A stretch of DNA of 48,692 bases from a virus. Taxonomy: Duplodnaviria > Heunggongvirae > Uroviricota > Caudoviricetes. A program made the position numbers and the translations under genes. Below, one piece after another: positions 10,321-47,456 of this stretch. Under the pieces are notes generated by a model. That model saw nothing but the letters and a program-made list of their open reading frames with translations, was not told the origin of the DNA and ran no database searches. Position 1 is the first letter of the stretch. Each line of letters starts with the position of its first letter. The stretch lies in the IMG/VR virus record IMGVR_UViG_2654588006_000004. The stretch is one strand, 5' to 3'.

Positions 10321-10653
10321 TCACCACTTCGTCAAACTGACACGAAAAATCGGTATAGGTGATATGTTCTGTCGCTGACCACGTTCGACACACCACTCTG
10401 ATTTTTCTGTTAATACCAGGCGGGCGCCAAAAAAATATTTATAGCCTTCATGCCGGGCTAAAAATTTTTCAAATGAATCACGTTCATTCGCCTCAACTTT
10501 GAAATCACAGGTGAAAACGCGCAGAGAATGATTAAGTCCATTTGGACTTCGTTGCTCATAACCATCGCCAAATCTTACAGTTTTTATCGATGGTTTATTT
10601 TCTGTTTTCATTCCATCCTCTGGTAACCAGTGAAATTCTTCCGTATTAGCCAC
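10321..10653 (-). CDS. M: Minor tail protein M-like
   Basis: 110 aa; VRFGDGYEQRSPNGLN resembles lambda M VRFGDGYSQRAPAGLN; overlaps end of tape measure gene by 8 nt. Confidence 0.7.
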   Translation of the reverse strand: MANTEEFHWLPEDGMKTENKPSIKTVRFGDGYEQRSPNGLNHSLRVFTCDFKVEANERDSFEKFLARHEGYKYFFGARLVLTEKSEWCVERGQRQNISPIPIFRVSLTKW

Positions 10654-11386
10654 TTAACATTCCCCCATCACGTCGCATATTTAACAGATTGCCCTGCACC
10701 CGCTGATCAACCATCCCCATAAGTGCTTTTATTGCCTGAGGGCCAATCTCTCCATTCTGGCCGTCATTTTGAATAGTGATTTGGTATACAGGGGCATAGG
10801 TAATATCTCCGCCTCCATTACCACTTTTACTATTAATAGCTCTGACACCAAGAGAACCATCGGAAGTTCGTGTTAATGGCATAATGGCTTCCGGACCAGC
10901 CTCACCAAAAACACCAGCCCCTTTTGCAAAAGCAAAAAATTGCGGGGAATCATAAATACCGTTCGAATACGTGTTCAATGACGGAGACTCATAAACACCG
11001 CCCTTTGCATTCGGAATAAATTTACTAATAGCACTCCCGATAGTTCCTAAAATCCCCCCCGAAGAACTGTTACTAATGCTGTCGAAAATCCGAGTAATTG
11101 AAGCCTTTAATGCTATTCGACTAAGATCCGAAATCACGGAAGTAGCGAAAGAACGAAAATTTGCCTTGCCTGTCGTGACAAAATCACCCAGCGCATCGGT
11201 CATTCCATCAAACATCTGAGTCGTGGTTGATTTTATCTGCTCACTGATATCCTTAGTGTCATCCAGCCAGTTATTGAATCCCTGGGAGGAACCACTAACC
11301 CAGTCTCCTGCCTGAATATCGAGCTGCTCGTTTTTCTGTCTGACAATTTCTTTTTCTCGTTCCAGAGCATCATTCAGAGCCTGCAT
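10646..11386 (-). CDS. Tape measure protein, C-terminal segment (downstream of an in-frame TAG)
   Basis: 246-aa ORF in the same frame as the 828-aa ORF upstream, separated only by TAG + 2 codons; Gly-rich C-terminal region with GVFGEAGPEAIMPL-type motif. Confidence 0.6.
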   Translation of the reverse strand: MQALNDALEREKEIVRQKNEQLDIQAGDWVSGSSQGFNNWLDDTKDISEQIKSTTTQMFDGMTDALGDFVTTGKANFRSFATSVISDLSRIALKASITRIFDSISNSSSGGILGTIGSAISKFIPNAKGGVYESPSLNTYSNGIYDSPQFFAFAKGAGVFGEAGPEAIMPLTRTSDGSLGVRAINSKSGNGGGDITYAPVYQITIQNDGQNGEIGPQAIKALMGMVDQRVQGNLLNMRRDGGMLSG

Positions 11387-11392
11387 TTTCTC

Positions 11393-13879
11393 CTAAAAAA
11401 CATGATTTGACATCCCACGGGATTTATCTGCATAGTCACGTTCAAGTTGCAGACGCTGATTGTTATATTCACGTTCAATCCGCAGTAATTCCTGCTGGCG
11501 TTGCTGATTTTTATCGCCAACCCCATAACCAGCAATCTGAATATCATACCCCTGTTGACGATTATCAATCGAAGCCTGCAATGAATCACGCCATGCAGCT
11601 ATTTCGGCGGATTCCTTGATTAGCCTGTTATTTTTTTCAATCGCAACATTTTTCTCCATCAACGCGGTTATTTCTTCCCGGTGTAAGAGAAGCGATTTCT
11701 GATCCTTGGTTAATTTCGATGACGGTCGTGACTCCAGGTCGGCAATCTGCTGACGCCACTTAACCAGTTCCTGTTCAGAGGAACTTAATTTAACGGTTAA
11801 TTCAGTTTGTGAACTTAGTAACGCATTCTGTTGATTCAGATGATCAATCATTCGTTGGGCAGCATCATCCGAATAACCTTTCGCCTTTGGTTGCTTTGGA
11901 TCTTTATAACGCTCATTTATTTGAGCGATAAGATTATTATATTCTTCCTTTGAATACTGACTCTTTAGTTTTTCCAGTTTTGCAAGTTCACTAGCTCTCT
12001 GCTGCTCCCGGGTCTGATATTGTTTTGAAAAGGCATCTGCTCTCTGTCTGAGTTCAATTCCTTCCTGTTGTCGCTTGTTGTAATCGTTTATTGATGAATT
12101 TAGTACGTCCTGAGCAATTTTTTCTGCTTGAAGTACGCCCAATTGCTGCTTTAATCGTGCCAGCCTTTTATTTTGAGCTCCGCCATCTCCAATGCCACCT
12201 AACCCGAAAACTCCGGGTCGGGTATTTTTTTCTATTTCATCAATTTGACGGAGAACATCTGAGATTTTTTGATCAAGGGAGGCCTCACGGCCAATATCCA
12301 GCATGGAATCCCATGCCCATTTTGCGGAGTCTGCGACAGCTTTCCATGCAGTCTCAAGATAACCAAGATTTTCTTTAATCTGGTTGGTGCGCTGGATCAT
12401 TGAGGATGAGTATGCTTCTGTCGCAATGCGGGCGGCCTCCTGCTGGTTCCCTTCATCCTGTAGCGCCTTAATCTGGTTATAAGTCGCAATTGTCAGAAAA
12501 TGGTACTGATCATTAAGTTTTGATATGGCACTGACAGGATCCTTTGCAATTTCATTGAAGTCATTAACCAGTTGTTCGGTTGATATTCCTGTTACTTCGC
12601 TCGTTTTTACTATCGCTGTCGTCACTTGCTCCAGCGAACTGCTCGCTACCTTTCCCGAACGCACAAGCTGGTTTAATACTGCCGCCGCAGCGCCAGTTGT
12701 CGAATCAGCCGCATTCCCGGCACGTTGAGCTATATCGGCCAATTGCCCGCTGGTTGTCCCCAACTGATTTCCGGTAAGAATAAGAGATTTATTAAATTCG
12801 TCCTGCTCCTGAGAGCCTTTATAGTAAGCCAGCCCTAAGACGCCAACGGCTGCTGCGGCCAGGGTAAAAGGATTAATTAATCCCAGCACATAAGAACCAA
12901 CACCTTTGATCGCCGGGCCAATCCCACCGAACATATCTTTTAGCTGGCCGCCCTGCTGCATTAACACCATAAAAGGCGACTGACCAGTGGACAACCCAAC
13001 AACAATATCCGTCATTTGTGCAGGCAACATGCGCATAGCAAAAGCCGTTTGTTTTGCCGACATTCCGGTTTTGCTTAATTGAGATTGAGTAACCTCAAGC
13101 TCACTCCGCATAGCACGAAGTTTTCCAGAAAGTTCCTCATACATTTCAGGAGAGAGCATCCCCTTAGCTTTTGCTTCATTGAGCTGTTTCTGTTGTTCTA
13201 CCAGACGATTAAAAGCAGTTCCGACAGGGTCAAGTTGAGCAATCAGACGTTGCAAAGCAGCAACCTGTTCATCATGCGCTTTTGCTGCTTCTCGCTCTGC
13301 CTGAGCCTCTCCGGTAAGCTCTCGCCGTGTTTCCTGTATTTTTCGGCTATAATTCTCAAACTGAGAACCATTTATTTTCCCGGATGCAAACGCAGCATTA
13401 AGTTCATCCTGCTGTTGTTCAAGATTTCTTAGCGCCGCAACCAGAGGGTCGATCTTGTCCAGCATTCTTTGAAAGGCCTGAGCCTGCGATTCCTGCTGGG
13501 CGGCAGCAAGTTTTCCGGCCTTCTCGGCTTCTCTCTGCGCTTGCGCAACCCCGCTCAATTCCTCTGTGGTTTCATTAAGTTTACGGACAAGAAATTCATA
13601 TTCTTCTTTATCAATAAGCCCTTTATCGAAAAATTTCTTTAATTCAGAATAGCGTCGACCGACAGTATCAATTGCGGCACCAACTGGATCAATAGCTGCT
13701 TTTAATTTTGCGAGCGCGTTCTTCTCATCTTCTGTTGCCTTAGTCACTTTCCCTGCGCTATTTGCAGCAGTTTCCCCGGCCTGCGTCATTTTGACTAATG
13801 AGGAGGTCAGATTGTCAGCATTATTTTTTGCTCCAGTGCTATCAATAATTATTGCGAGACGCGAGGTTTGCTCTGCCAT
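11393..13879 (-). CDS. Tail tape measure protein, N-terminal 828-aa portion ending at an in-frame amber codon
   Basis: Long coiled-coil-rich ORF between G/T and M; ends ...SNHVF then TAG at 11393-11395. Confidence 0.75.
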
Positions 13880-14042: not shown

Positions 14043-14363
14043 CTACACACACTGCTCCTGAAAATACTGGTCATCCAGTGCAAAGATCACTGCTTCAAAT
14101 TCATCGCGCTCAATCAATACCGGATGAGTGGCTAAATATTCATTTATCTCTGTCAGAGATAAAGGCAAAGGCACCCCAGCCATTCCAGCATAACGTCGGG
14201 CACGGGATATTACCGAATAGGCGTACAACAACTCCTTAAGCACCGGGTCTATTTCTGGTTCCGGTATCGGTGGCAACCTGAGTTTTTCTCGCTTCCATCT
14301 TGCCTTTTCCCCCCTTTCTCCCCCGAACTCCGATAACCACCGCTGGGCAGCTATGGCTTTTTT
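14043..14363 (-). CDS. Tail assembly chaperone T-frame extension (G-T fusion via -1 frameshift)
   Basis: The -1 frame relative to G is open from the slippery heptamer to the stop at 14043-14045 (104 codons); the track ORF 14043-14276 (TTG start) is its C-terminal part. Confidence 0.7.
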   Translation of the reverse strand, partial: KKAIAAQRWLSEFGGERGEKARWKREKLRLPPIPEPEIDPVLKELLYAYSVISRARRYAGMAGVPLPLSLTEINEYLATHPVLIERDEFEAVIFALDDQYFQEQCV

Positions 14364-14812
14364 ATCGTATCCTGCTTCTGCTGCTCTTTACCCTGGGCGA
14401 TGCTGGCTGCTTCTGCAAGGATCTGCCAGTACAACTCTGGATTCTGCTTGAGCAGCGCGATCCCTCGTTCTGCCGTATATTCCAGTGCAACCTCAACACC
14501 ATTAACCAGTTCACCAACCCCTTTCCAGTCTTTCAGCAGATAACGAGCGGCATTATCAATGAGTAAATCATCAACAGAATCCACCTCGGAAACCTTTGAA
14601 ATATCAAACTCCTTCGTTCCGACGTGCAAACTGGCATCCATTTTCTCAATGTGGCGACGGATTAATGCATTACGGGAGCGATACTGATCGTTATCGCTGC
14701 TTGCCACCAACAGTTTTAACCCGTCTACAGGTTTTAAGTCCTTCATTGGCGTAAACCAGCGTTCTCCACCAATGATAATTTTCTGATTAAGAATAAACAT
14801 CCATAACCTCAT
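14351..14812 (-). CDS. G: Tail assembly chaperone G
   Basis: 153-aa ORF directly upstream of the tape measure gene, with a 3' slippery site and overlapping -1 frame ORF (G/GT arrangement). Confidence 0.75.
   Translation of the reverse strand: MRLWMFILNQKIIIGGERWFTPMKDLKPVDGLKLLVASSDNDQYRSRNALIRRHIEKMDASLHVGTKEFDISKVSEVDSVDDLLIDNAARYLLKDWKGVGELVNGVEVALEYTAERGIALLKQNPELYWQILAEAASIAQGKEQQKQDTIKKP
14357..14363 (-). other. Programmed -1 frameshift slippery heptamer A_AAA_AAG
   Basis: mRNA reads GAT ACG ATA AAA AAG CCA TAG; the heptamer is identical to the E. coli dnaX slippery sequence and sits two codons before the G stop. Confidence 0.7.
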
Positions 14813-15849: not shown

Positions 15850-16299
15850 CTAGAGCGCGCGATATGGAATTTGAAGATTAAGCTGGAACCAGCCATTCTT
15901 TTCGCCGACGGCTATTGAGGAAACAGCCTGGTAACTGAGACGATCGTCATCCTGAAACTCAAACAGTTCCCGCAATTTATCGGCTGTCTCAGTAATGAGT
16001 TTTGAACCAGAACCTGCGGGGACAAATAACTGAATAATGATTATCCCCGTGCGATAAACAACCGGCCCCGCGCCAATTTCATTAACTCCAGCCTGCCCGG
16101 GAATATTACTATCAGATATACCAAAATCGGGATGCTGTAACGACACCAGGTTGTTATTTCTGAAACGTCCGGTATCAACCGGAGCAGCAATATCAATAGC
16201 AGTAAGAATCTGAATAGCGATGTAGCGAATCTTCAGCCCTACATCTTCCTCAATCATCCCGGCAAATATTGACGGTTCTATATCCCATGCCTTTGCCAT
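15850..16299 (-). CDS. Tail terminator / tail completion protein (U-like position)
   Basis: 149-aa ORF between head-tail joining genes and the tube gene; assignment by synteny only. Confidence 0.45.
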   Translation of the reverse strand: MAKAWDIEPSIFAGMIEEDVGLKIRYIAIQILTAIDIAAPVDTGRFRNNNLVSLQHPDFGISDSNIPGQAGVNEIGAGPVVYRTGIIIIQLFVPAGSGSKLITETADKLRELFEFQDDDRLSYQAVSSIAVGEKNGWFQLNLQIPYRAL

Positions 16300-19407: not shown

Positions 19408-20523
19408 TTAAATCCCTGCTTTTCTGAATACCTGTGCATCACGCTCACGGAGCTGCTTCAGCGTCAGCCATTCGCCTTTATCGGTGTAAAATTCATCTGG
19501 CGACATACCACCATCCCGAATCAGCTTTGCTCGGGTTTCCCCCACAATCTGTTTTTGTCTGGTGTAAGGCTGACGCAAAAACCATTCCCTGTAGGTTGTA
19601 TCTCCGGCCACCACGCCATCCATGCTGGCCCGCTCAGCCGGGGAAATATCGCGAACATCAATACCCAGTTCCTTCGCTGATTTCAGAATGAACGTTTCCG
19701 TTGAGCGGCAGCAGAAATGAATTTTTCCCGGCCCCTGCAAATAAGGCACGCTGTGACCTACAGGTTTATTATTCAGCGTATATTTGAGGCGATCCCTGAT
19801 TCGACATTGTGGCGTAGTACGATTATCAAGCGTTGATAACCATTGCTTACCCTTAATCAAATCATTATTCGCGCTGGCAAAACTCTCACGGGCAGTAGCA
19901 GCAAGATGTCCAACCGCTGTTTTTGCAATGCTGGCCGCATTAGCCCGGCTCATCTGCAATGCACCATCCTGAAATCCCTTACTGACATGTCCCCGAATTT
20001 TTCTTGCGATCTGCTCATTGGTATCCCCCAGCAAAAAACCCTGACGCACTGTATTTGTTATGCGTCTGAGCCGATCCGCCTCAAGATCTGAGGCCCACTC
20101 ACTGAGCAGTCGTCCCTGGAATGGTCGCGCCATTGCAGCGGCATAAAGTGCATCAGGAGAGATACCAACCAGAGGGTGAACATCAGCAACAAAATCAGGT
20201 AGCATAGAATCAAACAGACTTAACTGATAACCAGCCTCATAAATTGCCAGCTCGTTCAGCTCTCCGGAGAGACTGGTAAACATGCTGTTAATAGCAGTGC
20301 GGTTAACCTCTCTGACGCTCGCCAGAAGTGACTCCAGGCGCTTAACGGTAAAACTACCTGGATCGAGGCTGTCCAGTGCTATCAGCAGGCGAGCAGTAAG
20401 TTCCGCATCGCTGTCATTCAGTATTTTCACCATTCTGGCAGCCACGCCAGTGCTATAGCGGGATATCCAGACTGCATGAGCAATTGATTCATCACGCAGC
20501 CGTTCATTCACGGTTTGCATCAT
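19408..20523 (-). CDS. Head morphogenesis protein (Mu F / SPP1 gp7-like minor head protein)
   Basis: 371 aa immediately downstream of the portal gene, with 20-nt overlap; typical location and size for the Mu-F family. Confidence 0.6.
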   Translation of the reverse strand: MMQTVNERLRDESIAHAVWISRYSTGVAARMVKILNDSDAELTARLLIALDSLDPGSFTVKRLESLLASVREVNRTAINSMFTSLSGELNELAIYEAGYQLSLFDSMLPDFVADVHPLVGISPDALYAAAMARPFQGRLLSEWASDLEADRLRRITNTVRQGFLLGDTNEQIARKIRGHVSKGFQDGALQMSRANAASIAKTAVGHLAATARESFASANNDLIKGKQWLSTLDNRTTPQCRIRDRLKYTLNNKPVGHSVPYLQGPGKIHFCCRSTETFILKSAKELGIDVRDISPAERASMDGVVAGDTTYREWFLRQPYTRQKQIVGETRAKLIRDGGMSPDEFYTDKGEWLTLKQLRERDAQVFRKAGI

Positions 20524-30628: not shown

Positions 30629-31057
30629 TCAGGGTTTAAAATCCAGCACCCCATTTTGAAATACTTTATATACTTCCGGCGAAGGGGGGGCAGGTATATC
30701 AGCATTCTTTATCGCATTCATCGCTTCACGACATAAATCGAGGTCTCCACTTTCTCTTTTAACCTCCAGTAGAAGGCCATTCGGGGCCATATGCATTCTC
30801 AGTGTACACTCTTTTCCTGAATACTTACTCGCATCCCCGAACTGTTTTTCGATGGCGCTCTTGATTTGATGGGCATACAGACGGATATCCTCACTAACAT
30901 CAGAAGTACGTTCAGATGAACTCACATACTGTGTCTCTATTGCTTTATCGGAGTAATATGATGTACGGTCATGATAATTTGTCGATACAGCATCAGTGCA
31001 CCCGATAATAATCCCACTAATAATCAACGTAAGAATTGATGCGCTACGAAAACCCAT
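30629..31057 (-). CDS. Lipoprotein with TolA-domain-III-like C-terminal domain (paralogue 1)
   Basis: 142 aa; lipobox IIGC; C-terminal ~85 aa align closely with the recalled E. coli TolA C-terminus (QIKSAIE...CTLR...LAPDG.LL..K.E.GD..LC...PSP.VY.VF.N..LDFKP). Confidence 0.7.
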   Translation of the reverse strand: MGFRSASILTLIISGIIIGCTDAVSTNYHDRTSYYSDKAIETQYVSSSERTSDVSEDIRLYAHQIKSAIEKQFGDASKYSGKECTLRMHMAPNGLLLEVKRESGDLDLCREAMNAIKNADIPAPPSPEVYKVFQNGVLDFKP

Positions 31058-34184: not shown

Positions 34185-36659
34185 ATGTCGACAAAGGCCT
34201 ATTATTCTATGGATATCATAACAAAAATCATTGAAGACGCTCAAAAATTACAGTTATCCTCTGCAAATGAAGCTGAAACACGCCTTAAGATCATAGATCA
34301 AATACTCTTTGAAGTATTGAAGTGGACTAGGGATGATGTATCGGTAGAAACTCGAGTTAGCGAAGATGGCGAGACTACTTTTGCTGATTATGTCATTAAA
34401 ACAGCAAGTACTGCGTTTATAATTGAAGCAAAAAAAATTGGTCAGGCATTCGACACAAAACAATTCGATAGGAGACTGAAACTCAACAACAATAATCTTT
34501 CCGGTCCTTTTGGAGATGCCATAATTCAAGCAAGAGATTATTGTAGAAAACTGAGCATTCAATTTGCTGTTGTAACTAATGGTGAACAATGGGTTATATT
34601 CCCAGCAAATAGAACGGATCAAGTTGCATTCAACTCATCTTACGCAATTGTATTTAACAATTTACAAAGTGCACTTAAAGATGACTATACAGAATTTTAT
34701 GACTTATTATCAAGAAAAGCAGTTATAAACTCTAGCCTTGAAGTTACTTTATTAGGCAACAGGGAAGATCAAATAGAAGAAAGACGCTTAAAAAATACAG
34801 TCCGTAAAAGTATCTCTTATGATGCAAAGAATCCAATATACCCATTAGTCGAAGAAGCAATTATCACTTCATTTTCAGATACAATAACAGAAATCGACAA
34901 TGATCTTTTTGAAAGATGTTATGTAAATACTCCTGACAGGATGAAATTTGATAGGCGTATTAATATGCACATATCAAAAAGTCAACACCTCTTTAGTACG
35001 GCGCCTATAAGACCGATGCAAAAAAGAGATGCTAATGTTTTTAAAGAATCACTATTACGAGCAAAAAAGAATTCAAAACCTTTAGCTATTGTTATATTAG
35101 GAACTGTTGGCGCAGGTAAAACCACATTTTTACATTACACACGAAATATATCTGCCGCATCGTATTTCGAAAAATCAAATAATAAACCCTATCCTCATTG
35201 GATAAAGGTGGATTTTTTACAATACACGAATGACGAGTCCCCTATAGACTACATTTATAATATAATAAAAAACTATATTATAAGTGATCCATTTTTTTGC
35301 AATTATGAGCTATGCATACAGAACGCATACAAAGATGAGATAACTTCTATAAAAAAAGGACCTGCATTTCTTATTGCGAAGGATGAAGAAAAAATCAATC
35401 AACTAATTACAAACAAGCTACAAGCTGATTTTGACAAAGTTAAGCCATATGCTGATACTTTAATCAGCTATGCAACGAAAAACACACCTGTTTTTCTTGT
35501 TGTGGATAACGTTGATCAACTCAGCGAAGAAGTCCAATCTCAAATTTTCACTGATTGTGTAGCATTTTCCCAGAGACTCAAATGTAATCTTGTTATATCA
35601 TTACGTAATTCTACATATGTTGAACACCGTAACTCCCCAGCGTTTAACGCATTTGATTTCGATCCTATTCTTATTGAACCACCAAAAGTAGAGGCTGTTT
35701 TATCTAAACGTTTTTTCTTAGCCAAAAATATGCTTGAAGGAGAAGAAGGTGATTTTCTTTCAGATAATGGGATAAGATTTCACGTTGATAACAAAGCCGA
35801 TTTAATAAGCTTATTACAAAGCTCTGTTTTAGGAACAGAAATCGGCAATTTACTTGAAGTACTTGCTGCCGGAGACATCAGAAATGCACTAAGAATGACA
35901 AGAGAATTTATTGAACATGGTTATACAAATCCAGGTAAAGCTATGCGAATATATAGTGAAGGTGGCAACTATATATTGCCTAAGCATGAGGCTCTCAGAG
36001 CGATACTGCTAGGGAACCAAGCTGTATATTCAGAGGCTTATTCATTGGTTGGCAACCCATTTGATTCAAGACTGGGAAGGACCAACTTCCAACTTTTGAG
36101 ACTATTCGTTTTAGCAGCATTAGTCCAATATAGTGCTGATCCTGCATTTCAATATATCGACGGAATTGACATCCGAAAACAACTTAGAAAAATTGGTGTC
36201 GGTGATGATGACTCAATTGCCATACTGCGTGATTTATGTAAATTACGCTTTATAAGCACGGCTGGTCATGATGTACCAGAATTCAAATCAAGTTTTTATC
36301 CTACAAGACTTGGGGGATATATTACTAAGGAGCTAATCAGTAATTTTACATTTGTTGAATGTACTATGATGGACTCATTCATTGCGAACGAAAAAGTTTG
36401 GGAAGATCTAAAAGGATTTGAACGTTTAATTATAAACTCCTCCAGCGATGTAATCAAAAGACTAGAATATAGAAAGGAACGAGCACAAATATTTTTTGAT
36501 TATATGCTAGAACTATATAGTTCGCTGCTTGAGGAAGCCAATAAACGTGTATTACCTAAAGAATGGCGCACCAATCCTTTGCAGGAAGCTAGATATTCCT
36601 TCATTGAAAATCTAAACAAAGCCCTGCAATCAGCACAGAGAAATTACGGGGAAAAATAA
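34185..36659 (+). CDS. Large nuclease/NTPase fusion: N-terminal HsdR-N/Mrr-like PD-(D/E)xK signature + P-loop NTPase + C-terminal helical domain; candidate defence protein
   Basis: 824 aa; FADYVIK...FIIEAKK (D68, E81, K83); Walker A GTVGAGKT (aa 306-313); Walker B-like VFLVVDNVDQL; sensor-2-like GDIRNALR; AT-rich; opposite strand to neighbours; own terminator. Confidence 0.7.
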   Translation: MSTKAYYSMDIITKIIEDAQKLQLSSANEAETRLKIIDQILFEVLKWTRDDVSVETRVSEDGETTFADYVIKTASTAFIIEAKKIGQAFDTKQFDRRLKLNNNNLSGPFGDAIIQARDYCRKLSIQFAVVTNGEQWVIFPANRTDQVAFNSSYAIVFNNLQSALKDDYTEFYDLLSRKAVINSSLEVTLLGNREDQIEERRLKNTVRKSISYDAKNPIYPLVEEAIITSFSDTITEIDNDLFERCYVNTPDRMKFDRRINMHISKSQHLFSTAPIRPMQKRDANVFKESLLRAKKNSKPLAIVILGTVGAGKTTFLHYTRNISAASYFEKSNNKPYPHWIKVDFLQYTNDESPIDYIYNIIKNYIISDPFFCNYELCIQNAYKDEITSIKKGPAFLIAKDEEKINQLITNKLQADFDKVKPYADTLISYATKNTPVFLVVDNVDQLSEEVQSQIFTDCVAFSQRLKCNLVISLRNSTYVEHRNSPAFNAFDFDPILIEPPKVEAVLSKRFFLAKNMLEGEEGDFLSDNGIRFHVDNKADLISLLQSSVLGTEIGNLLEVLAAGDIRNALRMTREFIEHGYTNPGKAMRIYSEGGNYILPKHEALRAILLGNQAVYSEAYSLVGNPFDSRLGRTNFQLLRLFVLAALVQYSADPAFQYIDGIDIRKQLRKIGVGDDDSIAILRDLCKLRFISTAGHDVPEFKSSFYPTRLGGYITKELISNFTFVECTMMDSFIANEKVWEDLKGFERLIINSSSDVIKRLEYRKERAQIFFDYMLELYSSLLEEANKRVLPKEWRTNPLQEARYSFIENLNKALQSAQRNYGEK

Positions 36660-36758: not shown

Positions 36759-37178
36759 CTAATTTCCTTGATAAAACGCCAGCACTCGCTGCATAGCTTC
36801 GCTTTTCCGGCACTCGCGACAGATTATGTTCAGACGCCTGTCGTAGCGGCGTATTTCTCCGTCTGGTAATGACCAGATAAGGTCCGGATCAACCACAGAT
36901 AGTTTCTTCACCTTTGCCCTAGATAGTTTTTTGCGGGCATTTTGCCAATCCTTACGAGCCTGTTCAGACGGGAATAACCCGTAACCAGAGTTGTATACAT
37001 CGCCACTGGCAACCAGCTCTCTGGCGAGAACGCTCATCAGATATCTTGTCGCACCTGTCTTGGCTTCCAGTTGCCGTAACGTCTCGCGCCCACTCCGGCG
37101 TACTAGCTCAACAACCTGCCCTTTAATTTTTTCCCGCTCTTCTTGTGTAAATACTTTTGCCATAAGCGCCTCCGGCAA
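36759..37178 (-). CDS. Hypothetical protein, possible HTH
   Basis: 139-aa ORF downstream of the ydaW-like gene; basic C-terminus. Confidence 0.45.
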   Translation of the reverse strand: MPEALMAKVFTQEEREKIKGQVVELVRRSGRETLRQLEAKTGATRYLMSVLARELVASGDVYNSGYGLFPSEQARKDWQNARKKLSRAKVKKLSVVDPDLIWSLPDGEIRRYDRRLNIICRECRKSEAMQRVLAFYQGN

Positions 37179-37940
37179 TCACTTTTCCGATACAACACGG
37201 CGGGAAGAATCAGTAATCTGTCGAACAATATCCCGGTGCTTGTTCAGCTCCCGCAGCGCGGCGCAGACTCGCTCCCACTTCTGGACATGATTTTTCGCCC
37301 GACGCAGTTCGCGGTTTGCCATATGCAGCGATGGCAAAATCAGGTCATCAGCTCGCGTTTCAGTAAACGATGGCAGCGACTGCACAATGTCCGCCACAGT
37401 TTCTGTTTTAATATTTTCCTGTGTTGCCGCTTCCTGTACTGGTAACGCAACACCGGCTGGCTGAGGAAAGGTTTTACCATCATTTTTCGTTACCAATGCA
37501 GCTTTCGGTTCTGCTGGTAAATTATCGCCCGCCATGCAGTAACGAAATTTACCGCCCTGATTTACGCGAATCAGACGACCTTTGCTGATTGCCATTGCCA
37601 GCGTTGAAGCCACTTTGCGTGATGTGGTACCAAACAATGTAGCCAGCTCATCAGCCGTTTGTGGTCCTCGTTGTTCAATCGTCGCGGTTAAATCGCACTC
37701 TGAGATTTTCGCTACTGTTGCTGTGGTGATTTCTTCCGGCAGTTCTGCCTGCGCTGGCTGTTCCTGCTGAACATTGTTATCAGCCACACGCCAGGTGTAC
37801 GCGCTTTTATCAACAAAACCAGCCTTTTTCAGTTCCCATAGTTCGTTCAGCACTTCTTCACGACTGATATCAAGTCGCGCAGCAAGTTCTATGGATGTGG
37901 CTTTTCCCATTGCTTTCAGTGCGTCAAAAACAGTCTCCAT
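37179..37940 (-). CDS. YdaW-like protein with two predicted winged-helix segments
   Basis: Track ORF 37179-37991 overlaps ydaV; start at 37940 ([23 protein letters not shown]...) more likely. Confidence 0.5.
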
Positions 37941-37962
37941 TAAATTTTTCTCCCGGTAAAAA

Positions 37963-38709
37963 TTACTTCGCAATTCCTGGCTGGACGACATTCGGACGCC
38001 AGCTCTCCCAGTTAAAATTCACCCATCGCCCGCCGTTCATGGTCATGCGATCCATAATCCGCTCGCCGAGCAATGTTTTCATGGCCTCATAGTTCAGGTT
38101 TGTCAGCATCCCCACGCTGCGCATCGACGCTGTCCGGCGATCAACAATCTGGTGCAGTACCACCTGCTCGTTTTTCGTCTCGCGCTGAATGCCAATTTCA
38201 TCAAGAACCAGCAGATCCACTTCGCACAGTTCCCGCAAAAATTTTTCGCCTGACTGCCCATCGTCATAGCTGGCGTGCAGGGCACTCATAACATCAGCCA
38301 CGGTAACCACAATCACTGTCTGACCGTCTTTCAGCAGGCGATTCCCGATAGCTGCCGCTAAGTGGTTCTTCCCGGTACCAGGTTTTCCGCTGAACGCAAA
38401 ATTTGTACACCCGGTCATCAGTTCATCAGCGATGGATTTCGCCTGACTCAACGCGTATCGCTGCCCTTCGTTCTGCACCTGGTAATTCGAAAACGAGCAT
38501 TTGCGGTGCAATGGCTGGATGCCAGAGCGATTCAGAATTTTTTCCACCCGCAACTGACGATTCTGACGGTTGATCTCCTCACAACGTTTCTGGCCTTCGG
38601 AAAGTTGCCACTCGCGCCACTCCGCTACCGTCTTGAATGGCGCGGTTACATGTGACGGGGCCAGTCTGCGGATACGTTCAAGAACATCGCCTGTCGCAAT
38701 ATTTTTCAT
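37963..38709 (-). CDS. ydaV: DnaC-like helicase loader (replication protein)
   Basis: 248 aa; Walker [16 protein letters not shown] and Walker B LLVLDEIG; matches recalled Rac YdaV. Confidence 0.9.
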
Positions 38710-38715
38710 GGTCAG

Positions 38716-39573
38716 TTACCCCCTGAAGCCTGGCGGGATCGCACTATCCGGTAACGAGACGGTGTTAACCTGTCGGAGTAACGTCTCAGGTCGAACACCT
38801 TTCGGCGCGAACAAGCCCTGGTATTCATTGGCGATGCTGTGTCGAATCACCTGCTCAGGTGAAAAACCCTGCTGGCGGAATTTTTCCAGCTCCCGTATCG
38901 CCCCGTTAGCGCCCTGCTCCGTTCGAATCGGTTTTCGCAATGCCTGGCGAAATTCAACCCACTCACGCCAAAGCGAGACAGAAATCCAGTTCGGCAAAGC
39001 AATATCCAGAGGGTCAAACTTTTTGACACCTCGATTCCCCCGGGGGGGATTTAGGGGGGGATCTGTTTTTAGATCTTTATCTGTATCTTTATTAGTTGCC
39101 TTTGTGTTGACATCATGTTCAAACACCACTTCAACATCTGTTTGAACACCTGTTAAATTTCTCTCTTGTTTTGTTTGAACATCTGCTTCCTTTCTGCTTC
39201 TTCTGGCCTGAACAGATGCTTTTCCTGCGGCTGATTTTTTGGTTAATTTTTCCCTGACTGATGCCAGATCTTCCTCAATCCGAAGATGCACCCATTCCTC
39301 GCCGTTATCGCAAAAAAACTCCTGCAAGGATGGTTCAACATCAGCCCATCGCTCGTTAGTCAGACGGGCAATTTTTGCCAGCCTGTTTTTAGGTATTGGC
39401 TTTCCTGTTTGCCAGTAATTGAACATCAGCAACAAATACGCACCATGCTCCTCTGCTGACAAATGCATGGTGTCAGCCAGGTAATCAGCTATGTACAGTT
39501 GCATGTATGGTAATGCGGCCATAATTGCCCCGTATGATGCTGCCCGGTGGCTTAGAATAAGCACAAACAGCAT
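38716..39573 (-). CDS. ydaU: Replication initiation O-like protein
   Basis: 285 aa, same length as recalled Rac YdaU; upstream of the DnaC-like gene. Confidence 0.8.
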   Translation of the reverse strand: MLFVLILSHRAASYGAIMAALPYMQLYIADYLADTMHLSAEEHGAYLLLMFNYWQTGKPIPKNRLAKIARLTNERWADVEPSLQEFFCDNGEEWVHLRIEEDLASVREKLTKKSAAGKASVQARRSRKEADVQTKQERNLTGVQTDVEVVFEHDVNTKATNKDTDKDLKTDPPLNPPRGNRGVKKFDPLDIALPNWISVSLWREWVEFRQALRKPIRTEQGANGAIRELEKFRQQGFSPEQVIRHSIANEYQGLFAPKGVRPETLLRQVNTVSLPDSAIPPGFRG

Positions 39574-39585
39574 GGAAACTTTTGC

Positions 39586-40008
39586 TTAATGAACAATGAC
39601 AGAATCGTCGGAAGAACCGCCGCCGCTGAAATGCGCTTTCCGGTAAACGGCTTGGACTGCATCATCATGCGCATCAATTGCCGTACTTAACGCTTCCTGC
39701 GCCGCCAGTAATGCACGGCGTTCCAGGGTATCGAAGATGCAGAGTCGGTGACGCAGCTCGCGCGGAAGGATTGCCAGAATTGCTGGGATCAGCTTCTGAA
39801 TTTTTTCTCTTTGCGTTTTCGTTTCACCTTTCAACCAACGGTGATAGATATTCTGCTGATTGTTCCAGTCCTTGCCTGGAACCAGGGGCAATTCGCCGCC
39901 CCCCTGGCGCAGATATTCTTCAGTAATTGCATTGGCTACCCATGCCTGCCCTTTTTCGGCTGCTAGGGCAAACAACACTGATTCGATGTGCTCATGCTTG
40001 ATTTTCAT
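39586..40008 (-). CDS. ydaT: YdaT (CII-like regulator / toxic protein)
   Basis: 140 aa; matches recalled Rac YdaT; follows ydaS. Confidence 0.85.
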   Translation of the reverse strand: MKIKHEHIESVLFALAAEKGQAWVANAITEEYLRQGGGELPLVPGKDWNNQQNIYHRWLKGETKTQREKIQKLIPAILAILPRELRHRLCIFDTLERRALLAAQEALSTAIDAHDDAVQAVYRKAHFSGGGSSDDSVIVH

Positions 40009-40030
40009 GAATCATTTGCCTCTTGATGTT

Positions 40031-40327
40031 TCAGGTATGATCAAATGAGGATTTGTTACTGTCATTTAGTTGCTTCACTGACATATTCTGCGAACAACAT
40101 GCCGAACGTCGTAAATATGACCAGTCAATATCAGGACGAAGTTCTTCGCACAGAACCTCACCTCTTGTTGCACGTTCAATTGCTGGACATCTCTCGGCAG
40201 GCAATTGACGTACCCCTTTGATCCATTGATTTACGCTTGGAGGTGATACACCTAAAAGCCTAGCCATTGCTGATTGCCCACCGACAACAGCACAAGCTTG
40301 CTTGAATGAATAGTTCTCTTTTTTCAT
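40031..40327 (-). CDS. ydaS: YdaS (Cro-like HTH protein)
   Basis: 98 aa; HTH QSAMARLLGVSPPSVNQWIKG; divergent from racR. Confidence 0.85.
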   Translation of the reverse strand: MKKENYSFKQACAVVGGQSAMARLLGVSPPSVNQWIKGVRQLPAERCPAIERATRGEVLCEELRPDIDWSYLRRSACCSQNMSVKQLNDSNKSSFDHT

Positions 40328-40353
40328 CGAATGAACTCCAAAAACACACAGAA

Positions 40354-40383
40354 ATATTAGGCGACGCCTAACGCAATTGTCAA
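40354..40383 (-). promoter_or_regulatory. PR-like promoter for ydaS (consensus -35 TTGACA, 18-bp spacer, -10 TAATAT)
   Basis: Minus strand reads TTGACA-attgcgttaggcgtcgcc-TAATAT; the spacer contains the palindrome TTAGGCGACGCCTAA. Confidence 0.5.
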
Positions 40384-40437
40384 TAGGCTGTGCCTAATGC
40401 GGTAAGGGTAGGGATTGCCTAATGTAATGCGCATAGG
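40357..40437. promoter_or_regulatory. Operator cluster between ydaS and racR (TAGGC/GCCTA palindromes)
   Basis: TTAGGCG-A-CGCCTAA (40357-40371), TAGGC-TGT-GCCTA (40384-40396), imperfect GCCTAAT...CATAGG (40417-40437). Confidence 0.55.
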
Positions 40438-40450
40438 AGAATATTAAGCA

Positions 40451-40927
40451 ATGCTTAGTGGTAAAGACTTAGGCCGAGCGATAGAGCAGGCCATTAACAA
40501 AAAAATCGCATCGGGATCCGTCAAATCAAAGGCGGAGGTCGCACGCCACTTCAAAGTCCAACCACCATCAATTTATGACTGGATTAAGAAAGGCTCTATA
40601 AGTAAAGATAAACTTCCAGAATTATGGCGTTTCTTTTCTGATGTTGTTGGTCCAGAGCATTGGGGGCTTAACGAATACCCCATACCAACCCCCACCAATT
40701 CAGATACAAAAAGTGAACTTTTAGATATAAACAACCTTTATCAAGCAGCCTCTGATGAAATAAGAGCGATTGTAGCTTTCCTGTTATCTGGAAATGCTAC
40801 AGAACCAGATTGGGTTGACCACGATGTTCGCGCCTATATAGCAGCGATGGAAATGAAAGTGGGTAAGTATCTGAAAGCTCTAGAATCTGAACGGAAAAGC
40901 CAGAACATCACAAAAACTGGAACTTAA
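40451..40927 (+). CDS. racR: Prophage repressor RacR
   Basis: 158 aa; matches recalled RacR; GGAG SD 8 nt upstream. Confidence 0.9.
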   Translation: MLSGKDLGRAIEQAINKKIASGSVKSKAEVARHFKVQPPSIYDWIKKGSISKDKLPELWRFFSDVVGPEHWGLNEYPIPTPTNSDTKSELLDINNLYQAASDEIRAIVAFLLSGNATEPDWVDHDVRAYIAAMEMKVGKYLKALESERKSQNITKTGT

Positions 40928-41000
40928 ACTTATATGGTCTGACGGAAAACTCCTGGATTCCGTTATTTAACCCCCCCATCACTTTCTGCTGTCGCCATCA

Positions 41001-41063
41001 CCTATTAGGTTACGCTCAAAACATTAGGCATAGCCTATTGACAATCAATTAGGCATTACCTAT
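41001..41063. promoter_or_regulatory. Second operator cluster downstream of racR (OL-like)
   Basis: CCTA-T-TAGG (41001-41009), TAGGC-ATA-GCCTA (41025-41037), TTAGGCATTACCTA (41049-41062); same half-site as the racR-ydaS operators. Confidence 0.5.
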
Positions 41064-41066
41064 AGT
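41038..41066 (+). promoter_or_regulatory. PL-like promoter (TTGACA, 17-bp spacer, TATAGT) driving ydaG-ydaF and the early-left operon
   Basis: Read directly; -35 abuts one operator palindrome and the spacer/-10 overlap another. Confidence 0.5.
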
Positions 41067-41235
41067 TCCAGCATACCACCCACCCCGCCCCACAGAACGC
41101 CGGGCAATACTTCGAGTTACCAGGCAGTGGTAAGGGGTTAAGTAGCCAGCCCGAGGCGTATGAACATGACGGCGGGATTCAAATTTTGCAGTGCAGCAGT
41201 TAGTTCCGCCACCCGGCGTTAAGGGGAGAGATAAG

Positions 41236-41370
41236 ATGGTGCATTACGAAGTAGTTCAGTATTTGATGGATTGTTGCGGTATCACTTACAACCAGGCTGT
41301 GCAGGCTTTACGCAGCAACGACTGGGATCTCTGGCAGGCAGAAGTCGCTATACGTAGCAACAAGATGTGA
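41236..41370 (+). CDS. ydaG: Small protein YdaG
   Basis: 44-aa ORF MVHYEVVQYLMDCCGITYNQAVQALRSNDWDLWQAEVAIRSNKM (below the track cutoff); AAGGGGAG SD; matches recalled Rac YdaG. Confidence 0.7.
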   Translation: MVHYEVVQYLMDCCGITYNQAVQALRSNDWDLWQAEVAIRSNKM

Positions 41371-41380
41371 GATTCGCAAA

Positions 41381-41536
41381 ATGCAAAAAATCGACCTCGG
41401 CAACAACGAATCCCTGGTGTGCGGCGTGTTCCCCAACCAGGATGGAACGTTCACTGCCATGACGTATACCAAAAGCAAAACATTTAAAACCGAAACTGGT
41501 GCGCGCCGATGGTTGGAGAAGCACACAGTAAGCTAA
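41381..41536 (+). CDS. ydaF: Small protein YdaF
   Basis: 51-aa ORF MQKIDLGNNESLVCGVFPNQDGTFTAMTYTKSKTFKTETGARRWLEKHTVS translated by hand; 10 nt after ydaG. Confidence 0.7.
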   Translation: MQKIDLGNNESLVCGVFPNQDGTFTAMTYTKSKTFKTETGARRWLEKHTVS

Positions 41537-42021
41537 CGATTAAAACGTCTACTCCTGCTGTTCCAGAATAACTTCATAAAATGGGAGTATTTTTCGGTGA
41601 CGAGATAATAAGAACAGTTTGCGCTATCACTCTGATGTTGAATGATGCCCTTCCGTTCTAATTTTTTCATAACCGGGTTACGGCAAGGAGAAGTGATAAT
41701 AAGATTTCCTGTTTTAAGGAAATCTTTAAATACAGCGATTTCTTTCTCAGATAAACGAAGCAATACTCGTTGCTCTGGTAGTAATGAATAATGCTTTTGA
41801 ATATGTGCTCGCAATCTTGAGAAGGAAATGGCGACCACGAAAGAAAAGGCAAAAACGATAATCTGAAAGAGCCAAGGTATTTCAGTATAAGCATTGAATG
41901 CGGCAGTAAACTCTTTCGGTATCAGCCAGAGAGTGAGACCAAAAATGATAATCGTATACATAAGTCTTTCGAGTGGCTCGTTAGCAAAAAGTTTCAACAA
42001 TGGAGTAAATACATCCAACAT
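41533..42021 (-). CDS. sieB: Superinfection exclusion protein SieB
   Basis: 162 aa from MLDVFTPLLKLFANEPLERLMYTIIIFGLTLWLIP...; membrane protein; track ORF extends upstream to 42144. Confidence 0.85.
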   Translation of the reverse strand: MLDVFTPLLKLFANEPLERLMYTIIIFGLTLWLIPKEFTAAFNAYTEIPWLFQIIVFAFSFVVAISFSRLRAHIQKHYSLLPEQRVLLRLSEKEIAVFKDFLKTGNLIITSPCRNPVMKKLERKGIIQHQSDSANCSYYLVTEKYSHFMKLFWNSRSRRFNR

Positions 42022-42462
42022 ATCAATAACTCTCAACTGTAAGGGTATTGAAATGTTAACACAAGCTCTCGCTGTAGGGGTATAGCCGAGACCACCGAAG
42101 CCCGGAGGTGGTGAAATAAAACCGGGCACAACACGAAGGCGCATTTCCGATATCCATAAAGAGTCGGTCTTGTCTGTTAAATTTAAATGGTGGGAGTGCG
42201 CCTCCGGTTGTAAATAACGACATTGCTGTGTGTAGTCCTGGCGGCATCAGTTTTTTTCTTGAAGTTCGGCTGATGTCCGCCCTTTTTAAAGTGAATTTTG
42301 TGATGCGGTGAATGCGGCTAAGCGCACGTGGCACAGTTAAAAGTCATGTTAGTCCTTATTGGTTTGGGTGGGAAAGCCGACTGTAATTGTTAACTGGTTG
42401 CAGTCACCTGGAGGCACCAGGCACCGCATCAACAAAGTTCATTTGTAAAAATGGAGATAATT

Positions 42463-42684
42463 ATGATTGCACATCACTTCGGAACTGATGAAATACCACG
42501 TCAGTGTGTGACTCCTGGCGATTATGTTCTTCATGAAGGCCGGACATATATTGCCTCGGCAAACAATATTAAAAAGCGAAAACTATATATTCGTAACCTG
42601 ACCACAAAAACATGCATTACTGACCGCATGATTAAAGTCTTCCTCGGTCGTGATGGTTTACCTGTAAAGGCGGAGTCATGGTGA
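42463..42684 (+). CDS. kilR: Cell-division inhibitor KilR
   Basis: 73 aa [35 protein letters not shown]... matches recalled KilR; GGAG SD. Confidence 0.9.
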
Positions 42685-42854
42685 TGCCTAAGAAAATAAA
42701 ATGTGCTTACCACCTTTGCAAAAAAGACGTTGAAGAAAGCAAAGCTATTGAAAGAATGCTTCACTTCATGCACGGGATTTTATCAAAAGACGAACCGAGA
42801 AAATATTGCAGTGAAGCTTGTGCCGAAAAAGACCAGATGGCACATGAACTTTAA
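42684..42854 (+). CDS. ydaE: Small Cys-containing protein YdaE
   Basis: 56-aa [59 protein letters not shown]; ATG overlaps the kilR stop (TGATG); below the track cutoff. Confidence 0.7.
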   Translation: MPKKIKCAYHLCKKDVEESKAIERMLHFMHGILSKDEPRKYCSEACAEKDQMAHEL

Positions 42855-42928
42855 TTAATTGACTATTCGAAACTGAATTTATGCCAGAAATGGCAGGTAT
42901 TCGCTCAACCTTAATTAAGGAGAAAAAC

Positions 42929-43204
42929 ATGATTACCAATTATGAAGCCACTGTTGTAACTACCGATGACATTGTTCACGAGGTGAATCTGGAAGGAAAG
43001 CGCATTGGCTACGTAATTAAAACAGAAAATAAAGAAACCCCATTCACTGTGGTTGATATCGATGGTCCATCAGGCAACGTAAAAACACTTGATGAAGGTG
43101 TCAAAAAAATGTGCCTGGTGCATATCGGAAAGAATCTGCCCGCAGAAAAAAAAGCCGAATTTCTGGCAACTCTAATTGCAATGAAATTAAAAGGTGAAAT
43201 CTGA
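42929..43204 (+). CDS. racC: RacC
   Basis: 91 aa from MITNYEATVVTTDDIVHEVNLEGKR...; AAGGAG SD. Confidence 0.85.
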   Translation: MITNYEATVVTTDDIVHEVNLEGKRIGYVIKTENKETPFTVVDIDGPSGNVKTLDEGVKKMCLVHIGKNLPAEKKAEFLATLIAMKLKGEI

Positions 43205-43305
43205 AAGAAATAGCCTGCGTATGGCGCAGGCTATGAACAGTGTGTATCCGGCAAGATCATTCACTGAACAAAACGAATTTTAATCTGAGTTGAGGTTAAA
43301 AAACA

Positions 43306-45906: not shown

Positions 45907-46708
45907 GCAACCACCAATCGCAAAAGCCGATCTGCAAAAAACTCAGGGAAACCGTGCACCAGCAGCAGTTAAAAATAGCGACGTGATTAGTTTTATTAAC
46001 CAGCCATCAATGAAAGAGCAACTGGCAGCAGCTCTTCCACGCCATATGACGGCTGAACGTATGATCCGTATCGCCACTACAGAAATTCGTAAAGTTCCGG
46101 CGTTAGGAAACTGTGACACTATGAGTTTTGTCAGTGCGATCGTACAGTGTTCACAGCTCGGACTTGAGCCAGGTAGCGCCCTCGGTCATGCATATTTACT
46201 GCCTTTTGGTAATAAAAACGAAAAGAGCGGTAAAAAGAACGTTCAGCTAATCATTGGCTATCGCGGCATGATTGATCTGGCTCGCCGTTCTGGTCAAATC
46301 GCCAGCCTGTCAGCCCGTGTTGTCCGTGAAGGTGACGAGTTTAGCTTCGAATTTGGCCTTGATGAAAAGTTAATACACCGCCCGGGAGAAAACGAAGATG
46401 CCCCGGTTACCCACGTCTATGCTGTCGCAAGACTGAAAGACGGAGGTACTCAGTTTGAAGTTATGACGCGCAAACAGATTGAGCTGGTGCGCAGCCTGAG
46501 TAAAGCTGGTAATAACGGGCCGTGGGTAACTCACTGGGAAGAAATGGCAAAGAAAACGGCTATTCGTCGCCTGTTCAAATATCTGCCCGTATCAATTGAG
46601 ATCCAGCGTGCAGTATCAATGGATGAAAAGGAACCACTGACAATCGATCCTGCAGATTCCTCTGTATTAACCGGGGAATACAGTGTAATCGATAATTCAG
46701 AGGAATAA
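45899..46708 (+). CDS. recT: Single-strand annealing recombinase RecT
   Basis: 269 aa from [21 protein letters not shown]...; ATG embedded in the recE terminal codons. Confidence 0.95.
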
Positions 46709-46764
46709 TTCAGCCTGGCGGTGTAATGCACCGCCAACTTGAAATATTTTTTATGAGAAAAATT

Positions 46765-46959
46765 ATGAGATATGACAATGTTAAACCATGTCCATTTTGT
46801 GGTTGTCCATCAGTAACGGTGAAAGCCATTTCAGGATATTACCGAGCGAAGTGTAACGGATGCGAATCCCGAACCGGTTATGGTGGAAGTGAAAAAGAAG
46901 CACTCGAAAGATGGAATAAACGAACCACTGGAAATAATAATGGAGGTGTTCATGTATAA
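46765..46959 (+). CDS. ralR: Restriction alleviation protein RalR (Lar)
   Basis: 64 aa from MRYDNVKPCPFCGCPSVTVKAISGYYRAKCNGCESR... matches recalled RalR. Confidence 0.85.
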   Translation: MRYDNVKPCPFCGCPSVTVKAISGYYRAKCNGCESRTGYGGSEKEALERWNKRTTGNNNGGVHV

Positions 46960-47455: not shown

Positions 47456-47456
47456 T

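Follow-up and report, generated by a model that had tools for sequence, protein, structure and literature searches.

The tape measure gene of the Rac prophage described here has very probably been broken by a recent C to T transition that turned the glutamine codon 829 into an amber stop, which would make this a decaying, tail-defective prophage and not one with a programmed or conserved arrangement of two genes. The window, that is, the whole stretch of DNA analysed, comprises 48,692 nucleotides of an IMG/VR record (IMGVR_UViG_2654588006_000004). The locus shows ordinary prophage decay rather than some novel route to the tape measure protein.

Identity of the divided gene and its prophage

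Two open reading frames (ORFs) on the minus strand make up the locus. In the window ORF analysis an 828-codon ORF (13879..11393) ends in a TAG at 11395..11393; GAG AAA follows at 11392-11387, and the ATG at 11386-11384 opens a second ORF of 246 codons (11386..10646). Both share one frame, with 1077 sense codons and an internal stop, and the coordinates agree with those given in a first-pass annotation of this DNA, which had described the two ORFs as split by TAG, GAG AAA and ATG. The 5' part of the gene (11393..13879) encodes the ruler part of the protein and closes with the premature amber at codon 829 (11393..11395), where the C to T change falls on gene nucleotide 2485, window position 11395. 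The 3' part (10646..11386) encodes a Tape_meas_lam_C domain, a Gly-rich segment and a C-terminal tip-anchoring helix. The tape-measure character noticed earlier in both ORFs is borne out by Pfam, with TMP_2 (aa 267-471, 6.9e-82, 274.6 bits) and TMP_4 (aa 671-748, 1.2e-24, 86.6 bits) in the 828-aa part and Tape_meas_lam_C (8.9e-26, 90.2 bits) in the 246-aa part, all three above their gathering cut-offs of 30.2, 27 and 23 bits. GenBank holds the ORFs as two proteins, EFN8383293.1 (the 828-aa product) and EFN8383294.1.

The pair is no accidental juxtaposition, since both ORFs are collinear with uninterrupted 3234-nt genes of other E. coli at 99.6-99.9% nucleotide identity. In gene order the tape measure is preceded by the tube gene and by a chaperone pair of the G/GT type, and followed by homologues of M, L, K, I and J. 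The tail assembly chaperone pair (14043..14812, minus strand), a G/GT analogue named ydaY, matches the PHROG 'tail assembly chaperone' (4e-46) and PF27119 Phage_YdaY, and contains a slippery A_AAA_AAG at 14363-14357 in the correct phase, where a -1 shift would give a 256-aa fusion; the tape measure gene follows this pair directly, which confirms that the tail genes stand in lambda-type order. A single uninterrupted ruler frame is present in the relatives and is absent in the window, where codon 829 is TAG, and the window thus holds a disrupted allele of a lambda-family tape measure. The two ORFs together form a single tape measure gene of the lambda family, 1077 codons long, in a full-length Rac prophage.

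The 'Rac-like' label of the first-pass annotation agrees with the annotation of FDAARGOS_1058, which shows a lambdoid prophage by ttcA with intR, xisR, recET, kilR, sieB, racR, ydaSTUV and trkG, and with the alignment of the window to that genome at 98-99% over 3211-29846 and 36769-48692. A SieB domain is encoded by the window ORF at 41533-42144. Two sets of entries were considered as proof of gene function and rejected: the vB_EcoS-xxxRx GenBank 'phages' are PHASTER 'intact' calls from draft genomes, and Salmonella phage SPF_0923 is a software-predicted prophage region that includes chromosomal sitABCD, uspF and ompN. Both are predicted prophage regions and are therefore silent on viability.

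Origin of the amber codon and probable decay of the prophage

Codon 829 is CAG (Gln) in intact relatives and TAG in the window; CAG occupies the codon in every other relative examined, the sole other amber among them lying at Gln833. The comparison with intact Rac-like tape measure genes that had been proposed earlier thus marks the stop as a derived CAG (Gln829) to TAG point mutation, a single C to T transition. The 81-nt segment is found in 704 complete E. coli genomes, none of which has the TAG829 allele, the best match being 98.8%, or one mismatch. The surrounding 37-mer occurs on 29 IMG/VR contigs, of which 28 read CAG/CAG, one has the other amber and none has TAG829, and 18 of the 19 full-length genes on these contigs are uninterrupted. 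No homologue sharing the same stop and two genes was found among these 704 genomes and 29 contigs. A collection of one genome per species gave no match to the 37-mer with either allele and is uninformative on this point. Two intact 1077-aa alleles are found on at least 1000 and on 917 contigs, respectively; the 828-aa and 246-aa products are found on 2-3 contigs only, and the identical 828-aa protein on draft contigs only. The amber is confined to one small E. coli clone. Its recent origin is indicated by the nearest intact allele, that of FDAARGOS_1058, from which the window gene differs at 2 of 3234 nt: the amber itself and A864S, a private change that lies in the 246-aa ORF (window 11290) at a residue conserved with lambda gpH. 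Derived with respect to intact orthologues and narrowly clonal in distribution, the allele has the marks of a prophage pseudogene.

The amber is very probably one of a series of mutations through which a resident prophage is decaying; the tail and neck genes of this prophage carry at least one further clone-wide lesion, and one more in the window. The clone-wide lesion is a 320-bp deletion relative to L006, with its junction at window ~16109-16111, that leaves a 149-aa chimeric ORF (15850..16299, minus strand) joining the N-terminal half of a tail completion/Neck1 protein to the C-terminal two-thirds of a tail terminator, with PHROG matches to phrog_169 on aa 1-81 and to phrog_179 on aa 64-148. 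This deletion is common to the clone and absent elsewhere, a restriction that rests on an exact-protein look-up, in which the chimera appeared on only 3 contigs (including AJE55747.1); in a BLAST search with a junction query, which joined the two flanks and so could not by itself separate the counts of deleted and undeleted genomes, every complete-genome match listed fell into two pieces ~441 nt apart, that is, the undeleted two-gene form. The other lesion affects the gpM-like minor tail protein gene (10321..10653, minus strand), which is frameshifted from aa 73 in the window by a net loss of 1 nt at ~10429-10437 (A7+T against A8+G in drafts and relatives). The gene is intact (112 aa) in same-clone drafts and in FDAARGOS_1058, and the PHROG 'minor tail protein' match of the window version is limited to aa 2-76; found in the window only and in a homopolymer, this frameshift could be an assembly error. 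In the drafts the minor head protein gene is frameshifted. The deletion chimera and the window-only gpM frameshift are further lesions in the same module, again as in a prophage pseudogene. Among the options first put forward, that of a nonsense mutation in a tail-defective prophage is thus supported, with a derived stop private to one clone and other tail genes also broken.

The same gene has been broken repeatedly and independently in E. coli, where at least six independent disruptions were seen. One of them, Q833am, is an independent CAG to TAG change four codons downstream of codon 829, present in 32 complete genomes and on 293 contigs (for example NZ_CP026723.1 and ON470581.1) and annotated by PGAP/RefSeq as a pseudogene with 'internal stop'. 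It shares gene and mutation type with the window allele but differs in codon and lineage, and by clonal expansion it has become much more widespread than TAG829; its TAG comes directly after ATG832, so that there is no restart at Met832. The others include IS110 and ISVsa5 insertions (matches H42 and H43, E. coli), a 638-aa truncated version on 21 contigs and one frameshifted IMG/VR copy.

Translation at the stop and alternative readings

In an ordinary non-suppressor host translation would end at codon 829 and yield an 828-aa ruler fragment. The 249 C-terminal residues that would be lost correspond by homology to lambda gpH ~600-853, and among them is the helix with which gpH of lambda rests on gpI inside the tail-tip lumen. 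Ribosomes would probably restart at Met832 and make a separate 246-aa tip-anchoring chain. Since a tape measure is expected to act as an unbroken chain, fixed at the tip, along which the tube polymerises, two unlinked pieces would not be expected to give tails of defined length.

At the stop/restart junction (11384..11394, minus strand) a Shine-Dalgarno-like AGGAG at 11394-11390 overlaps the TAG and is followed by a 3-nt spacer, AAA, and by the ATG of Met832 at 11386-11384. Because AGGAG overlaps the stop and the ATG is only 6 nt downstream of it, the 246-aa piece can probably be translated, so that both halves would be made. AGGAG and Met832 pre-exist inside the intact gene, where the allele reads TTTTTCAGGAGAAAATG; in ON032529.1 the motif is weaker, CAAGAG. 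The junction is unpaired in the predicted mRNA fold, and the 100-nt fold (-14.2 kcal/mol, z = +0.99) is no better than shuffles and offers no stimulatory structure or context for readthrough. When homologues of the 246-aa piece were sought as stand-alone proteins, no conserved family of ~250 aa emerged: the matches, dominated by partial proteins and a weak test for distant phages, were for the most part truncated at contig ends, with scattered small clusters besides. Reinitiation, one of the options of the first-pass annotation, is accordingly plausible as a translation event, given the AGGAG, the near ATG and the unstructured region, but the split at codon 829 occurs in no relative, and among the relatives examined there is no sign of a functional or conserved split.

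A sequencing or assembly error, with a true base at window 11395 giving CAG, had also been considered. The change makes a T5 run into T6, and the gpM gene of the window has a homopolymer-associated indel without counterpart in the drafts. It is nevertheless a substitution and not an indel, and error is rejected since the same TAG and both ORF products recur in GCA_013047645.1 and GCA_002511815.1, two independent, separately deposited draft assemblies of the window's clone. Over 14-16 kb these drafts match the window at 99.97% identity, with differences at a few other sites. We give this reading next to no credence. It is likewise improbable that the amber is leaky or suppressed, with a suppressor tRNA or near-cognate tRNA-Gln giving enough of the 1077-aa protein, even if Gln insertion at UAG would restore the wild-type residue and only 3-6 tape measure copies are needed per tail (PMC10721106; PMC12617516). 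In a search for a prophage-encoded suppressor no tRNA gene was found in the window, no stimulatory RNA structure is predicted, the other tail lesions would persist, and the conservation expected of programmed recoding was not seen, TAG829 being absent from all 704 genomes and all 29 viral contigs. Amber suppressor alleles are rare in natural isolates. Readthrough, as it had been suggested earlier, would on these points reach a trace level at most.

A functional split is very unlikely. Here the 828- and 246-aa chains, made by termination and reinitiation at Met832, would associate non-covalently and still build tails, like gpH* and gpHC of lambda, and the junction is suited to making them. In lambda, gpH is cut close to the C terminus and the mature virion retains both fragments (PMC12617516), so that non-covalent function is not absurd in principle; the lambda cleavage, however, is proteolytic, takes place after assembly and lies in a Gly-rich region ~100 residues downstream of the equivalent of the window stop (PMC12617516). 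Further against it, the same split is found in no relative, Q833am cannot start an equivalent C-terminal chain at Met832 and is a pseudogene for PGAP, a stand-alone family of ~250 aa did not emerge from the largely partial search results, and the prophage, in which neither the tail terminator nor the tail completion gene is intact, would in any case be unable to complete its tails. The two independent ambers at codons 829 and 833 could instead mark a mutational hotspot or a selected truncation point, keeping the N-terminal 828-832 aa and/or a separate C-terminal domain. For one given pair of nonsense events the chance of falling within 4 codons is 0.8%, but with six events the chance of some pair this close is ~11%, and the downstream restart options differ between the two alleles, so that they do not converge on one product. 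Deamination of 5-methylcytosine at Dcm sites (CCWGG) was rejected as the hotspot mechanism, for the contexts TCAGG and GCAGG do not fit. There is little chance that a hotspot or selection is at work, and the closeness of the ambers at 829 and 833 is a mild coincidence. Barely plausible is a further reading, in which codons 829-833 are a tolerated or favoured breakpoint of lambda-family tape measures, the pre-existing AGGAG-ATG allowing separate synthesis of the tip-anchoring C-terminal domain and the chains joining non-covalently, or in which the fragments are co-opted by the host; if true, it would explain two ambers four codons apart and would be a genetic version of the gpH*/gpHC cleavage.

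Significance and comparison with known tape measures

With a recent amber in a decaying prophage as the preferred reading, the importance of the locus goes little beyond annotation: the two ORFs should be merged into a single pseudogene of the tape measure, marked as having an internal stop, and the prophage should be scored as defective in tail formation whatever prophage predictors report. The locus is a snapshot of early decay, in which, within one clone, a near-complete Rac prophage has collected a nonsense mutation, strain-specific frameshifts and a 320-bp deletion that fuses two genes. Proof that the two chains assemble would bear on the need for covalent continuity in lambda-type tape measures during assembly.

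Lambda gpH (853 aa; PDB 8IYK/8IYL/8K35) shares TMP_2, TMP_4 and Tape_meas_lam_C with the Rac protein, and its gene has the same position among the tail genes, after G/GT and before M-L-K-I-J. With 1077 codons the Rac gene exceeds the 853 of lambda, and the window stop corresponds to gpH ~598. Residues 623-850 of gpH align with the 246-aa ORF (PDB 8iyk_H, E = 4e-19), whose C terminus includes the counterpart of the tip-anchoring helix that docks on gpI; gpH 818-849 has been modelled as a coiled coil in the tip lumen, held by gpI (PMC10721106). The intact Rac tape measure of FDAARGOS_1058 (WP_000840627.1, NZ_CP065970.1) belongs to the same prophage, has like flanking genes and is identical at 3232 of 3234 nt, but has CAG in place of TAG at codon 829 and Ala in place of Ser at 864, and its genes for tail completion, the tail terminator and gpM are all intact. 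Amber mutants of lambda gene H (Ham) give tail-less particles on non-suppressing hosts; these are laboratory-selected conditional mutants, whereas the window amber is a natural allele of a resident prophage. The Rac prophage of E. coli K-12 is defective. It is of the same family and occupies the same chromosomal site as the window prophage, and its tape measure is degraded to the ynaA remnant, a label also found on a tape-measure fragment among the E. coli matches (match H42). In K-12 most structural genes have been deleted, whereas in the window the structural module is still almost complete and its lesions are point-scale, and the window prophage is thus at an earlier stage of decay than K-12 Rac.

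The disrupted tape measure gene and its Rac setting

The tape measure gene of the window lies on the minus strand (13879..10646) and is read in a single frame as 828 sense codons, a TAG at 11395-11393, Glu-Lys, Met832, 245 more codons and the final stop, with the junction sequence ...CAT GTT TTT TAG GAG AAA ATG CAG.... Translation of this frame gives exactly the coordinates and layout of the split gene described in the first-pass annotation, and the tape measure character assigned there to both ORFs is borne out by Pfam, with TMP_2 (6.9e-82) and TMP_4 (1.2e-24) in the 828-aa ORF (13879..11393) and Tape_meas_lam_C (8.9e-26) in the 246-aa ORF (11386..10646). Domains, synteny and C-terminal homology each place the protein among the lambda-family tape measure proteins, and the gene in the window is a disrupted allele of a member of this family. 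Directly upstream is the ydaY tail assembly chaperone pair of the G/GT type (14043-14812, minus strand), in which ydaY encodes the gpG-type chaperone and an A_AAA_AAG slippery heptamer at 14363-14357 (minus strand), in the correct phase, allows a -1 shift that joins ydaY to the small ORF downstream in a 256-aa GT-type fusion. The chaperone pair and the tape measure gene form a canonical lambda-type tail module. In existing annotations this pair is split into 'YdaY' and 'hypothetical protein' as separate ORFs.

The window is a full-length Rac prophage, aligning at 98-99% identity to the Rac element of E. coli FDAARGOS_1058 (NZ_CP065970.1), which has sitD and ttcA at its flanks. The genes annotated in the latter are intR, xisR, recET, kilR, sieB, racR, ydaSTUV, trkG, terminase, portal, capsid, tube, ydaY, tape measure, M, L, K, I, J, lom and stf, and its tape measure gene is one unbroken 3234-nt CDS (WP_000840627.1, 1077 aa). 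Rac is the textbook defective prophage of K-12, where nothing but a remnant, ynaA, is left of the tape measure gene. In the variable Rac slot, where FDAARGOS_1058 has an ATP-dependent nuclease and a cytosine methyltransferase, the window carries an 824-aa ORF (34185-36659, plus strand) with an HSDR_N-like nuclease N-terminus, a KAP/STAND-type P-loop NTPase and weak PADLOC matches to DrmMI and PDC-M54B, possibly an anti-phage defence cargo gene. The two elements also differ in the stretch that separates the lysis genes from the Q-side genes, where the window has a 142-aa ORF (30629-31057, minus strand) with a TolA C-terminal domain (PF06519, 2.4e-23); this interval holds tRNA-Gly and tRNA-Thr in FDAARGOS_1058 and no tRNA in the window.

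A derived amber at codon 829

Codon 829 is CAG (Gln) in the intact genes of ON470609.1, ON032529.1 and FDAARGOS_1058 and TAG in the window, the sole change within the codon being C to T at gene nt 2485. Over the whole gene the window differs from the nearest intact allele, that of FDAARGOS_1058, at this position and at one other, G2590T, a private change that causes A864S in the downstream ORF (window 11290, minus strand); Ala864 is a residue in common with the lambda tape measure protein gpH (NWMAGL). An 81-nt query with the site at its centre hit 704 complete E. coli genomes, in none of them identically, the best having one mismatch. IMG/VR was scanned with a 37-mer pattern in which both relevant positions (codons 829 and 833) could be C or T, and the 29 contigs recovered comprised 28 CAG/CAG and one CAG/TAG, with no TAG/CAG allele among them; the gene is uninterrupted in 18 of the 19 IMG/VR loci that hold it full-length. 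In a collection of 15 billion proteins, two intact 1077-aa alleles occur in at least 1000 and in 917 contigs, and the exact 828-aa and 246-aa products in 2-3. As judged from these comparisons, a point mutation created the stop, which is derived relative to intact Rac-like genes, in agreement with the nonsense mutation that the first-pass annotation had offered as one reading.

Sequencing error, also raised there, is rejected as the source of the TAG. The same TAG and both products are found in two separately deposited draft assemblies of the same small E. coli clone, GCA_013047645.1 (contig AATPKV010000040.1) and GCA_002511815.1 (contig NLVV01000048.1), which share 99.97% identity with the window across 14-16 kb yet differ from it at 5 places, so that they represent close relatives of its strain, sequenced independently.

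The 'phages' that carry the tape measure gene either were predicted as prophages in draft genomes (bioRxiv 10.1101/2022.06.29.498070) or include chromosomal flanks. The GenBank 'phage' records ON4705xx-ON4706xx and ON032529.1 are in-silico prophage calls, and the last, 'Salmonella phage SPF_0923', contains the E. coli-type chromosomal genes sitABCD, uspF, ompN and ydbK, while of Rac it has just the late half. Being prophage predictions or including chromosomal flanks, these records were rejected as evidence of viability for either allele.

Probable consequences for the tail

The 246-aa ORF aligns to lambda gpH 623-850 (PDB 8iyk_H, E = 4e-19), so that the stop corresponds to approximately gpH residue 598, and the break lies about 100 residues upstream of lambda's natural cleavage region. 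Inside the lumen of the tail tip, residues 818-849 of gpH form a coiled coil gripped by the gpI trimer (PMC10721106), and since the equivalent region falls in the downstream ORF, the 828-aa product would lack the tip anchor. An AGGAG at 11394-11390 (minus strand) overlaps the stop, the ATG follows 6 nt downstream of it with a 3-nt spacer, and the mRNA is predicted to be unstructured at the junction (z = +0.99); thus the 246-aa piece is probably translated. Termination-reinitiation at this type of spacing is well established in bacteria, and the spacer is short for de novo initiation. The SD-ATG arrangement is not conserved in the intact gene (CAAGAG in ON032529.1) and is present there by chance.

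Other virion genes are also damaged. Compared with FDAARGOS_1058 and with every complete genome among the matches listed, 320 bp are missing from the window at ~16110, leaving a 149-aa chimeric ORF (15850-16299, minus strand; junction ~16109-16111) in which the first 63 codons of the 126-aa tail completion/Neck1 gene (phrog_169) run into the final 86 codons of the 130-aa tail terminator gene (phrog_179). The exact chimera occurs in only 3 contigs, all of the window's clone, one being a 5,017,219-bp genome (AJE55747.1); its name in the sources, 'electron transfer flavoprotein subunit beta', is wrong. In the gpM-like minor tail protein (10321-10653, minus strand) the frame is shifted from residue 73 by the net loss of 1 nt from an A-run (~10429-10437; A7+T against A8+G). 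This indel is seen in the window only, is absent from the two drafts, and could be either a genuine third lesion or an artefact of assembling the homopolymer. The window keeps the minor head protein gene (19408-20523, minus strand) whole, at 371 aa, and a 1-nt deletion confined to the two drafts (C3 to C2, at ~20039) divides it there into 190-aa and 181-aa ORFs. The clone carries two shared lesions and strain-specific ones, all within structural genes, which is the pattern expected once selection has ceased to act on the virion module of a resident prophage.

A functional split, in which two unlinked chains associate non-covalently during assembly, gains something from the stop/restart junction that makes the 246-aa piece likely to be translated, but nothing supports such association, the split is not conserved as in a naturally two-gene tape measure, and the deletion fusing the terminator and completion genes would stop tail maturation regardless; a working tape measure built from the two reinitiation products suggested in the first-pass annotation is extremely improbable. 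Meaningful readthrough or suppression of the amber, its other suggestion, is very unlikely, as the stop is not conserved and has no predicted stimulatory structure; no tRNA gene was found in the window. We strongly favour a nonsense mutation in a tail-defective prophage. The C to T change at Gln829 would end translation early in one 1077-codon gene, giving the unanchored 828-aa fragment and probably a 246-aa fragment restarted at Met832 as a separate chain, and the amber would be part of the decay of the virion module in a resident prophage. The locus should be annotated as one pseudogene in place of two genes, and the prophage as defective. It is routine for resident prophages to acquire nonsense mutations in their structural genes, and this locus is a clean example of prophage decay at an early stage.

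A second amber at codon 833

An independent CAG to TAG change four codons downstream, at codon 833, is found in 5 GenBank 'phage' records and 32 complete E. coli genomes (carriers include ON470581.1 and NZ_CP026723.1, 155323-158556); its exact 832-aa product occurs in 293 contigs, and RefSeq labels the gene a pseudogene with 'internal stop'. Other independent disruptions of the gene include IS110 and ISVsa5 insertions, a 638-aa truncation (21 contigs), 401-aa C-terminal fragments and a frameshifted copy in IMG/VR. Codons 829-833 might suggest a mutational hotspot, the computed probability that two random single-nucleotide nonsense events in the gene fall within 4 codons being 0.8% (p ~0.008), but given about 6 independent disruptions some pair would be this close ~11% of the time (~0.11), and the closeness is treated as coincidence and not as a sign of a hotspot. 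A hotspot at Dcm sites was rejected, as neither amber position is one. In the codon-833 allele the TAG stands directly after ATG832 and therefore the Met832 restart does not exist there, whereas it is possible in the window; the two amber alleles do not lead to the same pair of products.
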